Source: Nitrososphaera viennensis EN76
GTDB taxonomy: Archaea; Thermoproteota; Nitrososphaeria; Nitrososphaerales; Nitrososphaeraceae
DNA length: 32,000 nucleotides
Assembly (NCBI RefSeq): GCF_000698785.1
Contig: NZ_CP007536.1
Span: 1,620,001-1,652,000 of the forward strand
Reading direction: 5' to 3'
The notes under the pieces were generated by a model. It did no database searches. It saw only the letters and a program-made list of their open reading frames with translations, and was not told the origin of the DNA. A program made the translations under genes and the position numbers. Of the stretch, positions 3,011 to 7,048 are shown piece after piece (the first letter of the stretch is position 1; each line of letters opens with the position of its first letter).

Positions 3011-3077
3011 TGTTAATTTCAAGAGGTAGTATGAGGTAAGGGGTTTGAGATTCTACTTTCCACAGCGGAGGATAAAG

Positions 3078-4565
3078 ATGAGACAAAGTAATCACTTTGG
3101 AATTGACAAGAACATCAACATAAAGAAGACATTCTTAATTATTGCAACCCTCCTTGTCGCTGGCACCCTTGCACAGATATCTGCTTCTCCAAAAGCCTTT
3201 GCAGACGGCCTCACGCAGGAAAATCTTCCTCCTGCAACATTTGGCAACCGGGAGGCAGCGCTTTTTGTCAAGATTAATCCGCCGATTCTGACGACAGAAT
3301 CGCAGCAGGATGCGTACCTGCAGTTCAGGCTGTTTGACGTCAAGACCAACGAGACGATAAAGTTCCCGACGCTCAACATCGCCGTGTACAAGGGCACGGA
3401 CCCGAAAGCCAAGCCCCTCATGCAGGATTTCTTCCAGAGTGAAAACGGCCTCTTGACGCTAAAGATAAAGCCGCAGGAAGGCCCTGTCCAGATCCAGGGC
3501 AGCCGGGAGCCGTTCCTTAGCGCATTGCAGGCAGACCCTGGCGGAACGGTGAACGTCAGCGGGCCGGTATTGCTGGACGGCGGGCTGTACCGCATCGATG
3601 TAGAGGTATTTGGCATCGATTTTCCTACTAACATCTTCAAGGACGAGGACGTCAAGACGTTCGAGACCGCCCTCTCTGTGGGCGATGTCTATAGCCAGAA
3701 CGTCCAGTCTGCAGACGGCAAGACCTACCCGATGTCTATAATCTCGTACTACGACAAGGTTGAGGACTTTAACTTTAACGCAGAATCCAAGACCTATTCC
3801 TGGGCCATGCCCTTTGACTGGAATGTAGAGAGGATACAGAACGCACAAATGTTTCGTGCATGAAGAGGTGAAGGTGCCCAAGTCGTTGCAGGCGTGGGGC
3901 GACGCGTCTGCCTTGAGCAAGGTCAACGGCAAGCCCAATGCGGGCCGCATGCTGGCAGTCGACCCGTTCGCAGACGAGAACAACCTCATACTGCACTTCT
4001 GATAAACAAGAACGACATACTGGACATGGCCAGGAACGATCCTCCGGCTGATGGAAAGATGTCGTTCTCCTTCTCTCCAGCCGGCGCCGCAGGGGAGCAG
4101 ACATCAGGCGAGATATCCACAGACACGGGCGGCATCCATGTCCTCATGAACTGGACTCCAAGCCAGCTCAAGGCAGGCACCGATACGAAACTCAACATGC
4201 GGTTTGTCGACGCGTTTGCCGGCGCCAGCATCACCGACGACGTCAAGTACGACATCAAGATATTTGACAAGGCCGGCAAGGAGGTATTTGCAAAGGCGGA
4301 CCAGATTGCCAAGGGCGGCGCAGGCGAGCAGACGGGATTGAACTTCCCTGCCGACGAGAACTACCGCGTCGAGGTGACGGTCAAGGGGCTAGTCAAGGAA
4401 GGGCAGGCGCCTGACCTCACGAGAAACGGGATTGCAAGAGGAACGGTGGTTGTGCCGGAATTTCCTGCGTCTGCCAGCATGCTCGTGGCCGTAAGCGCCA
4501 TTGTTGGACTTGTAATATTGATCCAAAGGACCCGGAAATTCACCGGAGGGAGAGGTTATCCATAG
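3078..4565 (+). pseudogene. secreted protein with PEF(G)-CTERM-like archaeosortase sorting tail, interrupted by two compensating frameshifts
   Basis: ATG 3078 gives a signal peptide (KKTFLIIATLLVAGTLAQISASPKAFA). Frame 0 stops at 3861-3863. The sequence continues sensibly in the +1 frame from 3859 (HEEVKVPKSLQAWGDASALSKVNGKPNAGRMLAVDPFADENNLILHF), stops at about 4000, then returns to frame 0 (LINKNDILDMA...). The C-terminus VVVPEFPASASMLVAVSAIVGLVILIQRTRKF is a motif plus TM helix plus basic tail, as in thaumarchaeal PEFG-CTERM proteins. Confidence 0.7.
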
Positions 4566-4826
4566 AGAAAGTGATCTGCAAATTGGAAGCGGATGCCAGT
4601 GACAATGGTGGCGGTAGTGATGGGAAGACAGCCAGTGAGATCTAAGAGACGGCGGCGACCAAGACACAAGTCTTCTACAAGAAGCAACATAAGGAAGTAT
4701 GCTTGCGGATGTATTATTCAATCAAGCAACCGCTGCAACGCATTCTTTGTATCTTTGTGCGATTACCATAGAGGGGAAACAAATACCACTTCTGCCACGT
4801 TAGAACAGCTGGAAGACAAGATGCAG

Positions 4827-4848
4827 GGTTCTGTCAAGTCTTAGGTTG
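4827..4848. repeat. terminal inverted repeat at the tnpB 3' end
   Basis: 22/22 match to the reverse complement of 6129-6150. It overlaps the last codons of tnpB (HQPKT*). Confidence 0.9.
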
Positions 4849-6085
4849 GTGAACAACCCTGTCAACTTTCGGTTGTTGACAGTGACTCAACTTCGCAGCA
4901 TCGACTCTGAGGATTACCGGCATCGCTTCTCCCGGGTTCCCCTTCATTGCTTCACATGCTGCGCCTTTTGAACTGGCGAACCTTGCCAGCCCTTTGAATG
5001 AAAGGTTCATGGCCGCTACCACGTCCCTGTCCATCCATCTCTTGCATTCTGCACACCACAACTGCCTTGCCTTCCTGTCCTTTTGGGTCATCTTCTTCCC
5101 GCATCTAGGACAGAGCTGCGATGTGCCTCTCGTTTCCTTGACGGACAACTGAATTACGCGTACTCCTTCCCAAGCTGCTTTGTACGTGATAAGCCGCTTT
5201 ATTTCTGCAAAAGACCAGCCGTTCAATGTTGAGCGATAGTTCCTGCCCTGTCCATTACCTCGTTGATATAGCCGGCGTATGTAGGTAATGTCCTCAAATG
5301 CTATCGCTGCTTTGTCATTCTTGGCCTTGTTTGCAACTGCTTTTGATACGTGGTGTAGGAGCTGGTTTACTCTATTCCTGCGGCGCTTGCCGTACTTGTT
5401 AGCTATCTTCTTTCTTACCCTCACATCGTTGCGCTTGAACGACCGGATAATTGACCACGTGTTCTCTGTAATATCAACTGCTTTTGATAGGTCGTATTGC
5501 ATCACGTTCTCGTAATTTCCGACAGTAAGATTGCGGAGGTTCCTGTCTACGCCTTCTATGCTGGTGCATTCAACTTCTTCTGTGACCTCTTTTGAGATGC
5601 AGATGCTGACCGTGTTGCTAGCAGTCAACGTGATAGAACGCACTTTCACCGAAGGGTCTGATAGGATTCCACTTACGTGGTTATTCAGGGGAATGTCGAA
5701 GTACTGTCTGTCGCCAAGGGGCACTTTCAAAAATACTACCATCATCCACAATCTTGAACCCCGTGTATGTTGCCAGCAATGGTCTTTTGGCGTATGGTTG
5801 CCTTGGCTCAAACCCTCTCCTTATCGACGTTTTCCTGTTGGCAAGTATGCCTGCGGCGTGCGAGATTGCACAGATTTTGTAAATGCTATAAACATCGTAC
5901 CTACTAAGCTCGTGATAGCATAACTTGGTTAACTTGATTCTAGTTGATACGTTGTTTTCAAGACCGATCCTAATGCAGTCATTAACCATCTGCCTGAACG
6001 TTTCCATGAGAGGCAGCAGAGGTTCAGTTGAGCATGACTGTACAGTACTCTTGACTGCTAGCAACAGAACTAGAATTATAGTCAC
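4834..6085 (-). pseudogene. tnpB: TnpB (IS605 OrfB / IS1341-type RuvC-like nuclease), split by one frameshift
   Basis: The N-terminal ORF 5681-6085 ends ...YTGFKIVDDG. The C-terminal ORF 4834-5811 resumes VVFLKVPLGDRQYFDIPL in another frame, with the shift within about 5734-5749. Hallmarks: GVDRN (RuvC-I Asp), AIAFEDI (RuvC-II Glu), CPRCG...CAEC zinc ribbon, DRDVVAAMNL (RuvC-III Asp). Confidence 0.85.
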
Positions 6086-6128
6086 CTATTTAAGATTTGA
6101 TCAACCGATTTTTGACAGGCATTTCCAT

Positions 6129-6150
6129 CAACCTAAGACTTGACAGAACC
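6129..6150. repeat. terminal inverted repeat at the tnpB 5' end
   Basis: caacctaagacttgacagaacc is the exact reverse complement of 4827-4848. Confidence 0.9.
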
Positions 6151-6448
6151 AGATGCAAAAAGACAGAATAAATGCCACCCACAATTTCAACGCCCCGGTC
6201 GTTTAAAATTCTCCCCAGCTTGTCTCTCTCTAGCCACATCCCCCAAGTACTGCTAAGCATTTTAGAAAGAAAATCATCATCACCTACGCCAGTTATAACT
6301 CTGCGTCTGGTGATACTTTCCTATCTTGTGTTGCGGCTCAACAAGCAAGATCTCCTCCCAAGTGCATAAACCATGTGCCCCGGTAGCGTTCTCCTGCCCG
6401 CAAGTCGTTTATAGTAGCCCGCCGAATGCTGTGGTGGAGTTGTAACCT

Positions 6449-7033
6449 TTGGCAAGAACGCCGGCAATAGCAGGAAAGACGTCTGATCCGCTTCATCATA
6501 ACCCAAACCTGAATCCCTACTTTCGTTTTGACAACGAGTCCAAGCACATAAAAGATTCTGTTTTCAGCTGCAGAGGGATAATAATCAACGAGAGGTTCTG
6601 GAACCGGATCCACAAGGAACTGATGGATCTGTCAAAAGACTCTGGTCCTGTCATACTATACCAGCTTGGGCTGAACTATGGATGGGAAGTAGGCGGTCAA
6701 GGCAAAGATCTCATAAAGGACCCTCTTGCCGCTGTTAATTTCCTAGAGTATTACGGCTTGCTGGCCGGCTGGGGGCGTTTTGAGGCATCGGAACTGCAAC
6801 TGACACAGGGACGCTTGGCAAAGCCCATCGTCGTGAAGGTATTCGATAATTTCTTTGCGCGCGCTGCTGGAAGAAGTGAGACGGGCAACCCTGGCTGCTT
6901 TTTCCTTTCGGGACTCATCGCAGGTGTGGTGGATGCATTGTTTGGTGCCCATCATAACTGCCTTGAGGACAAGTGCATTTCTGCAGGCTCGGAATGCTGC
7001 GAGTTTGTCGTTGCAAGGATGACTATGGACTAA
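6449..7033 (+). CDS. V4R (4-vinyl reductase) domain small-molecule-binding protein
   Basis: GIIINERFWNRIHKEL...ILYQLGLNYGWEVG...CFFLSGLIAGVVDALFG...CLEDKCISAGSECCEFVV matches the V4R pattern, including the C-terminal Cys cluster. The start is uncertain: TTG at 6449, with no upstream in-frame ATG. Confidence 0.72.
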   Translation: MARTPAIAGKTSDPLHHNPNLNPYFRFDNESKHIKDSVFSCRGIIINERFWNRIHKELMDLSKDSGPVILYQLGLNYGWEVGGQGKDLIKDPLAAVNFLEYYGLLAGWGRFEASELQLTQGRLAKPIVVKVFDNFFARAAGRSETGNPGCFFLSGLIAGVVDALFGAHHNCLEDKCISAGSECCEFVVARMTMD

Positions 7034-7048
7034 CTAGAGATGAAAAGA

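Follow-up and report, generated by a model that had tools for sequence, protein, structure and literature searches.

A tnpB-only element of Nitrososphaera viennensis EN76 with IS6-like inverted repeats: a probable non-autonomous archaeal transposon with a predicted omega-RNA

The window analysed here, a stretch of 32,000 nucleotides from Nitrososphaera viennensis EN76 (contig NZ_CP007536.1, positions 1,620,001 to 1,652,000), contains a short element with tnpB as its only gene. From the comparisons described below it appears likely, with a probability of roughly 0.75, that this unit of 1324 bp is a non-autonomous archaeal transposon with IS6-like terminal inverted repeats (TIRs), which carries a TnpB/omega-RNA module as its only cargo. 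A first-pass annotation of the window had described a non-autonomous TIR element containing tnpB and bearing the footprint of a DDE-type transposase. This description is supported by the ends and the 8-bp target-site duplications (TSDs) of sibling elements encoding a DDE transposase; mobilisation in trans is what we infer.

Both exact 22-bp repeats that had been reported are present. There are exactly two copies of the 22-mer GGTTCTGTCAAGTCTTAGGTTG in the window, one at 4827-4848 on the plus strand and one at 6129-6150 on the minus strand, and 100 shuffles of the window gave no match to it, even if three mismatches were allowed. The inverted repeat (IR) reaches further inward, to 49 nt with 84% complementarity (4827-4875 with 6102-6150). 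Size and gene content of the tip-bounded unit, 1324 bp with tnpB alone, were also borne out. Directly outside the tips, agatgcag and agatgcaa are identical at seven of eight positions; a match of at least 7/8 at one fixed position has a chance of about 4e-4. The duplication claimed for this site gains from relatives of the element, which show 8-bp duplications as well. The features at the two ends are as follows.

4819-4826, unstranded: TSD copy at the 3' end of tnpB, agatgcag; 7/8 identical to 6151-6158, with 8-bp TSDs in homologous elements.
4827-4875, unstranded: right-end IR, IS6-like; tip GGTTCTGTCAAGTCTTAGGTTG plus inner motif CCTGTCAAC..TCGGTTG.
6102-6150, unstranded: left-end IR, IS6-like, upstream of tnpB; from the inverted-repeat search and the IR consensus.
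6151-6158, unstranded: TSD copy at the 5' end of tnpB, agatgcaa; read from the sequence.

Repeats and a 7/8 flank match could also have come together by coincidence in a degenerate tnpB pseudogene, and the element is indeed single-copy and frameshifted in the N. viennensis genome. Given the shuffling result and the recurrence of the same ends and duplications at many independent loci, this explanation is refuted and retains next to no probability.

More than 1700 homologues were obtained with the repaired TnpB protein. The best 120 of them are all at least 60% identical, and the organism-labelled entries among these 120 all belong to Nitrososphaera or Nitrososphaerales. For comparisons at the DNA level, 11 loci were used (L006, L048, L049, L050, L051, L054, L055, L056, L059, L060 and L061). 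All 11 related elements, with 47-82% amino acid identity, end in GACTTGACAGAACC or a near variant, and most begin with GGTTCTGTCAAG or a decayed form of it. In viral collections, neither the right-end pattern nor the TnpB protein scan gave matches. Duplications of 8 bp with 6-8 identical positions were detected at seven independent insertions, the window counted; in the orientation of tnpB they read as follows.

Window: TTGCATCT / CTGCATCT, 7/8.
L048: CTGCGAGA / CTGCGAGG, 7/8.
L049: TCAACTTA / TCAACTTA, 8/8.
L056: TGGCCGAG / TGGCCGAG, 8/8, provided that the left end has lost the terminal GG.
L059: TGGATCTA / TGGACCTA, 7/8.
L060: CGCTAGAA / CGCTAGGC, 6/8.
L061: AACATGCG / AACATACG, 7/8.

Different boundaries in other copies had been named as a sign against the proposed unit; in the relatives, boundaries, TIRs and 8-bp TSDs are all retained. 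At the nucleotide level, the window element can be aligned over its entire length with L048 (81.6% identity) and L056 (78.6%). Since this homology spans the whole element, the mobile unit extends from tip to tip, and since it shows no inner boundaries, there is no space for an older, enclosing element. This bears on the alternative, already raised in the first-pass annotation, that an ordinary tnpB unit of the IS200/IS605 group (IS1341-type) was inserted in an older IS6-like miniature inverted-repeat transposable element (MITE), from which repeats and duplication would then derive. Small MITEs with these ends do exist (L002, 88 bp; L014, 46-119; L015, 6862-7038), and in the subclade of the window element the right end retains the complete IR of about 50 nt. 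Against nesting stand the homology of independent insertions from tip to tip without inner boundaries, the extension of the tnpB open reading frame (ORF) and of the predicted RNA fold into the tip itself, and an architecture common to 12 elements at 47-82% protein identity. Because so many elements share it, any nesting must be ancient, the composite having moved as one unit since. For the present-day unit this alternative is thus largely refuted and very unlikely; it reduces to a question of the evolutionary origin of the IS6-like tnpB transposon favoured here.

The family behind the repeats became apparent in an exact scan with a 20-nt tip, which revealed 14 genome loci and 23 metagenome loci. 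The hosts are Methanoperedens, Methanocellaceae, Methanotrichaceae, Thermoplasmata, Aenigmatarchaeota, Nitrososphaeraceae and Nitrosomirales. Read inward, the ends share a consensus of about 50 nt consisting of GGTTCTGTCAAGTCTTAGGTTGAT, 8-10 variable nucleotides and CCTGTCAAAAnTCGGTTGAT. Both ends of the window element fit this consensus, which summarises 39 ends from diverse archaea. In other archaea, tip-bounded elements bearing a DDE transposase span 5.2-5.7 kb. Two of them, L014 128-5367 and L015 1129-6853, possess both ends, perfect 8-bp TSDs (ACTCTTGG and CTATTTGG, respectively) and a gene for a 368-aa transposase. With 47 bits, this protein passes the gathering score of Pfam DDE_Tnp_IS240, and IS6 is the top NCBIfam family for it (E = 2.5e-31). 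Full-length homologues with about 60% identity adjoin the same tip in L011 and L033. Transposase remnants were found in L001, L004, L013 and L031, the DDE remnant of L031 being accompanied by a TSD of 7/8.

The IS6 family is characterised by 8-bp target repeats, GG tips and cTGTt and caaa motifs in the IRs, and transposase clades extended by a zinc finger are known within it (PMC7986276). The tip GGTTCTGTCAAG has the GG end, CTGTC and CAAG, and 8-bp target repeats are found in the window and its relatives as well as, with 8/8 identity, in L014 and L015. Because the tips are shared with DDE-bearing elements and the features defining IS6 are present, the repeats can be regarded as IS6-like ends. 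A family of cognate DDE transposases was found in IS6-like elements with the same 22-nt tip, the same IR of about 50 nt and perfect 8-bp TSDs. An undescribed type of insertion sequence, offered earlier as an alternative, is not needed. Cut-and-paste movement, also claimed earlier, was not established; movement in the IS6 family is classically replicative and forms cointegrates (PMC7986276).

Some further properties of tip-bearing loci were observed. Exactly 8 bp separate the large element from a small MITE in both L014 (MITE at 46-119) and L015 (MITE at 6862-7038), and this 8-bp gap is the large element's own target duplication. The arrangement suggests that the 8 bp bordering a resident end served as the target of the large elements, which recalls how IS26 inserts beside another copy of itself, and may be taken as an indirect hint of cointegrate-type movement. 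The large elements carry cargo, which in L014 comprises a restriction-modification methylase fusion of 849 aa together with a proteasome-like ORF. In L007, from a metagenome-assembled genome (MAG) of Nitrososphaeraceae, the exact 22-nt tip (1746-1767) and a partial IR lie beside an ORF with a metallo-beta-lactamase fold. No tnpB, DDE gene or partner end was found near this tip, which appears to be a solo end or part of a cargo element, in the archaeal family to which relatives of the window element also belong.

The tnpB gene of the window is located on the minus strand and split into two ORFs, 6085..5681 and 5811..4834. It matches Pfam Cas12f1-like_TNB with 60 bits, while its best NCBIfam match, guided_TnpB (E = 5.7e-25), is below the cut-off of that model. 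Across the TnpB protein alignment, neither the catalytic D/E/D residues nor the cysteines of the zinc ribbon vary; the gene specifies a RuvC-like nuclease with zinc ribbon, interrupted by a frameshift. Its stop codon at 4834-4836 lies inside the right-hand repeat, in agreement with the placement of the tnpB 3' end within one TIR by the first-pass annotation. The frameshift noted there is real and could be refined to a net insertion of 7 nt, which is absent from the three close relatives L048, L049 and L056 and was mapped against them to about 5733-5745. Split ORFs are present in 10/10 public assemblies examined. Programmed frameshifting was considered and rejected, since the relatives lack the 7 nt inserted here and there is no slippery site. 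The following features belong to the gene.

4834-5811, minus strand: C-terminal reading frame of tnpB with RuvC, zinc ribbon and tail; from the ORF list, profile matches and alignment.
5681-6064, minus strand: N-terminal reading frame of tnpB, likely start TTG 6064 (MLAVKST...); from the alignment with P0001 and the distance to the TATA-like box.
5731-5747, minus strand: frameshifting lesion, net 7-nt insertion versus L048, L049 and L056; from the alignment to relatives.
6087-6093, minus strand: TATA-box-like TTAAATA, 22 nt upstream of TTG 6064; read from the sequence.

In archaeal promoters, a TATA-like box is located upstream of the start. TTAAATA at 6087-6093 is a predicted archaeal promoter element of tnpB, and its position just inside the left IR is conserved in relatives. 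A scan for bacterial promoters and terminators was uninformative, since the host is an archaeon. The start region of tnpB, 6051-6066 including the TTG, shows perfect complementarity over 16 nt to a coding segment about 430 nt downstream (5613-5628). In L048 and L056, 15 of the 16 positions are kept, and in L051 and L059 the equivalent positions are still complementary with a different sequence (GTTGGCAGTAA/TTGCTGCCAAC). This may reflect a long-range pairing within the mRNA that masks the start codon.

The identical C-terminal ORF was found at one locus only in every public assembly holding it. Because it is single-copy, has tnpB broken by the 7-nt insertion and shows one mismatch in the duplication, the window copy is most plausibly an old relic of its family that no longer moves. 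Next to the element, most independent public assemblies of the locus stop at about 4315-4425 of the window, inside ORF 3894-4565 and about 410-520 nt past the tnpB stop, which suggests a repeated sequence or gene family there. Pfam gave no match for the window ORFs 3045-3863 and 3894-4565.

The 3' part of tnpB apparently also encodes a structured RNA. The last 140-190 nt of the 12 elements were aligned and analysed with RNAalifold and pair counts. The resulting consensus fold consists of 30 pairs in five helices. Across the 12 elements, 98.3% of the cells assigned to pairs are in fact paired, compared with 26-41% if the partners are slid. Compensatory changes were observed at seven pairs, and in 500 shuffles neither the paired fraction nor the covariation score of the real alignment was ever attained. 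The same structure is obtained from the window sequence by itself, at a minimum free energy (MFE) of -63.3 kcal/mol (z = -4.05). When the alignment was turned into a covariance model, the window received 167 bits; E-values of this home-made model are rough. An extra 5' hairpin covaries as well, as read from the sequences: CTGGC/GCCAG in the window, CGCTCG/CGAGCG in L056, CGCTG/CAGCG in L051 and CGGTG/CACCG in L059. A structured RNA over the tnpB 3' end that stops at the right end of the element is the arrangement known from OMEGA systems, and the predicted fold shows it. An Rfam scan of 4500-6500 in E-value mode gave chance-level matches only, none to a described omega-RNA family.

4827-5007, minus strand: omega-RNA-like scaffold over the tnpB 3' end; from consensus fold, covariance model and MFE.
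4859-4882, unstranded: 8-bp hairpin, ctgtcaac (4859-4866) with gttgacag (4875-4882); pairs in the predicted fold.

The repeat tip is part of this fold, providing the 3' strands of helices 1 and 5. In helix 1, the terminal GAAC of the tip is the partner of GUUC, and in helix 5, GUUGAGUC, at the K-L-S codons of tnpB, pairs with GACUUGAC of the tip. In L050, two substitutions in the tip and one upstream preserve all eight pairs of helix 5. Exact tips were found at the right end of 10 of the 12 elements and at the left end of about five, which fits an extra constraint on the right-end tip. The hairpin at 4859-4882 had been taken to sit where the omega-RNA scaffold would be expected. It is present and pairs in the fold, but it turned out to be an insert into the helix 5 loop that varies between elements and is built from the inner IR motif, and not the scaffold itself. 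It occurs in the window, L048, L049, L054 (with a change of U-A to C-G in the stem) and L056, is absent from L051, L059 and L006, and is restricted to the subclade whose right end retains the full IR.

Additional RNA-related loci were noticed. L009 1498-1840, from a Nitrosomirales MAG, is a TIR-bounded element of 343 bp that lacks tnpB. It retains the left IR and a TATA-like box, and the covariance model identified a complete omega-RNA in it with 90 bits; it is possibly a guide-RNA-only MITE depending on TnpB and transposase in trans. A weaker omega-RNA copy (42 bits) is located at L035 475-615. L050 harbours a second, different tnpB (4224-5384, minus strand; OrfB_IS605 plus Cas12f1-like_TNB) about 500 bp from the TIR-type tnpB element. 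This second gene gave no match to the omega-RNA model, so that two TnpB lineages are found side by side.

A role of the tip in the RNA opens another explanation, in which the tips exist for reasons of RNA or TnpB, movement does not involve a DDE transposase and relies instead on a Y1 TnpA in trans or on repair of TnpB breaks, and the likeness to IS6 is convergent. The position of the right-end tip inside the fold and its better conservation relative to the left-end tip agree with this, as does the failure to see a DDE gene next to any of the 12 tnpB elements. However, the tips are identical to the ends of DDE elements at 22/22 nt and the inner IR motif is shared too; the left end, where no RNA role is apparent, has a full IR; the 8-bp duplications of variable sequence at seven insertions match those of DDE-bearing elements; and elements with Y1 and serine TnpA produce no duplications (PMC13565253). 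Movement without a DDE transposase is therefore considered improbable, and an IS6-like transposon remains the preferred interpretation.

An omega-RNA takes its guide from the DNA bordering the element at its right end. For the window element, this predicted flank and a candidate for the target-adjacent motif (TAM) are located as follows.

4807-4826, minus strand: predicted guide-encoding flank CTGCATCTTGTCTTCCAGCT leading out of the right end on the tnpB strand; deduced from the position of the end, the first 8 nt being the TSD copy.
6159-6162, minus strand: candidate TAM, CTTT when read along tnpB, abutting the TSD on its 5' side; the 4-mer recurs at this position in L048, L049 and L056.

CTTT directly 5' of the left duplication copy is common to the window and its three closest relatives (77-82% amino acid identity). 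The local background of CTTT is about 0.009 per position. The chance of any shared 4-mer at one fixed offset is roughly 7e-7, or near 5e-4 after allowing for about 20 offsets and sides and for choosing four of seven insertions. In L054 and L050, whose boundaries are blurred, a C followed by a run of T occupies the place of CTTT, and three more distant tnpB relatives have GTTA, GATG and ATTA instead. The motif is one-sided, AAAG not being found after the right TSD copy, and it is absent from L014 and L031 read in transposase orientation. As a general property of the transposase it was rejected as a simple explanation, given its one-sidedness and its absence from L014, L031 and three distant tnpB elements. 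One-sidedness argues against an origin in the transposase because a two-fold symmetric transpososome should not sense it. CTTT is put forward as TAM only tentatively, at somewhat less than even odds; the geometry of motif, duplication and flank would suit a TnpB guide from the right end. In the uninserted allele, TAM, duplication and flank would match the right-end guide, and the occupied allele would diverge from it after 8 nt.

Taken together, the following course of events can be proposed. An IS6-like zinc-finger DDE transposase encoded elsewhere would have recognised both ends and inserted the unit here in trans. The predicted archaeal promoter just inside the left IR would drive tnpB, and the omega-RNA would run through the right IR into the flank, its guide starting with the 8-bp duplication. 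If a TAM, probably CTTT, abuts the duplication on the 5' side, alleles without the insertion would be recognised by the nuclease and the occupied one spared, which could allow TnpB-type homing or retention for a transposon that makes duplications. A further step would be an OMEGA module fused structurally and functionally to the end of a DDE transposon, in which the tip would double as DNA site of the transposase and as the helices that close the omega-RNA. The guide would again begin at the duplication, and persisting copies would be those having CTTT as TAM immediately 5' of it. This fusion is a speculation for which the odds are a little below even. If true, it would account for the way in which RNA-guided homing could operate with a DDE element making duplications, TnpB cutting the uninserted allele only, and RNA-only MITEs such as L009 would borrow TnpB in trans.

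Several observations weigh against the interpretation as an IS6-like transposon or against parts of it. Pairs of TIRs without TSD were found in L051, L055, L006, L009, L010 and others; missing TSDs are expected from IS6-type cointegrate or recombination histories, and other histories are compatible as well. The 368-aa transposase reached 109 bits on the NCBIfam IS6 model, which has a cut-off of 125 bits, and it possesses an N-terminal zinc domain of the IS1/IS1595 type; because of these two findings, its formal family assignment is provisional. Neither the window element nor the 32-kb window contains a DDE transposase gene. Such a gene is absent from all 12 tnpB elements, and neither a DDE gene nor a TnpA was seen adjoining any of them. 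For P0142, a DDE homologue labelled Nitrosocosmicus (L062), a TIR was not recognisable on the 2.9-kb contig, and it was dropped as direct proof of a cognate transposase in Nitrososphaerales for that reason. In the tip helices no compensatory double changes were detected, helix 1 being invariant and helix 5 showing one-sided changes only. Finally, IS6-type replication leaves the donor intact, so that the usual rationale for TnpB, repair of the excision site, is not obviously applicable.

Publications on TnpB together with IS6 or with Nitrososphaera, or on ISMhu11, were searched for without relevant results. As far as the literature was searched, a non-autonomous element of this kind, its IS6-like ends, a guide RNA derived from the repeat and the motif adjacent to the duplication appear to be undescribed. 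According to a 2026 review, associations of DDE transposases with TnpB are rare and mechanistically puzzling (PMC13565253). The elements raise the questions of how a guide RNA coexists with a repeat bound by a transposase, whether TAM choice and target duplication co-evolve, and whether a DDE transposase can mobilise RNA-guided nucleases in trans. The clade also supplies compact archaeal pairs of TnpB and predicted omega-RNA with defined boundaries.

Among known systems, IS1341-type members of IS200/IS605 resemble the window element in having tnpB as the only gene, an omega-RNA over its 3' end up to the right end, and a non-autonomous nature. IS200/IS605 and IS607 elements have neither TIRs nor target duplications (PMC13565253), whereas the window element has TIRs of 22-49 nt and an 8-bp TSD. 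In IS200/IS605, which is mobilised by a Y1 (HUH) TnpA, subterminal hairpins take the place of TIRs. Despite the same cargo, membership in these families therefore fails on two of the features tested, TIR and TSD. The accepted partners of TnpB/omega-RNA modules are scarless transposases of the Y1 or serine type; here, an entire clade in soil ammonia-oxidising archaea has IS6-like ends with 8-bp duplications, and its predicted guide RNA is built in part from the transposon end. With IS6/IS26 the window element has in common the 8-bp duplication, the GG tip and the cTGTt-like and caaa-like motifs, here CTGTC and CAAG. The transposase of its sibling elements, of the DDE_Tnp_IS240 type with an N-terminal zinc finger, recalls the zinc-finger clades of that family. 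Classical IS6 elements have 700-900 bp, IRs of 15-20 bp and one transposase gene, and a single member carrying passenger genes is listed (PMC7986276). The elements described here differ in IRs of about 50 nt, in the size of 5-6 kb and the cargo of the transposase-bearing relatives, and in the lack of a transposase in the window element.

Branches of TnpB linked to DDE transposases have been reported, including the IS630-linked 'DDE-6' with symmetrical ends (Altae-Tran et al. 2023, PMC10691335). DDE-6 is similar insofar as a prokaryotic TnpB is found within a symmetrical-ended transposon of a DDE family. The reported elements encode a DDE transposase and a helix-turn-helix (HTH) protein in cis, while all 12 tnpB elements here are without a DDE gene and have IS6-like ends; IS6, IS26 and IS240 are not mentioned in the available text of that paper. 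MITEs likewise possess TIRs and a TSD, lack a transposase and presumably depend on one in trans. Unlike them, the window element carries a complete module of protein plus RNA, of which smaller derivatives (L009) keep only the RNA. The eukaryotic form of TnpB, Fanzor, is likewise an RNA-guided nuclease that is carried, together with its guide RNA, within the TIRs of TSD-making DDE transposons (PMC13565253). The window element differs from these in being archaeal, far smaller and non-autonomous, and a link between TAM and TSD is only suggested for it. If the fused module tentatively proposed above exists, it would be a prokaryotic, non-autonomous counterpart of Fanzor in TIR transposons.

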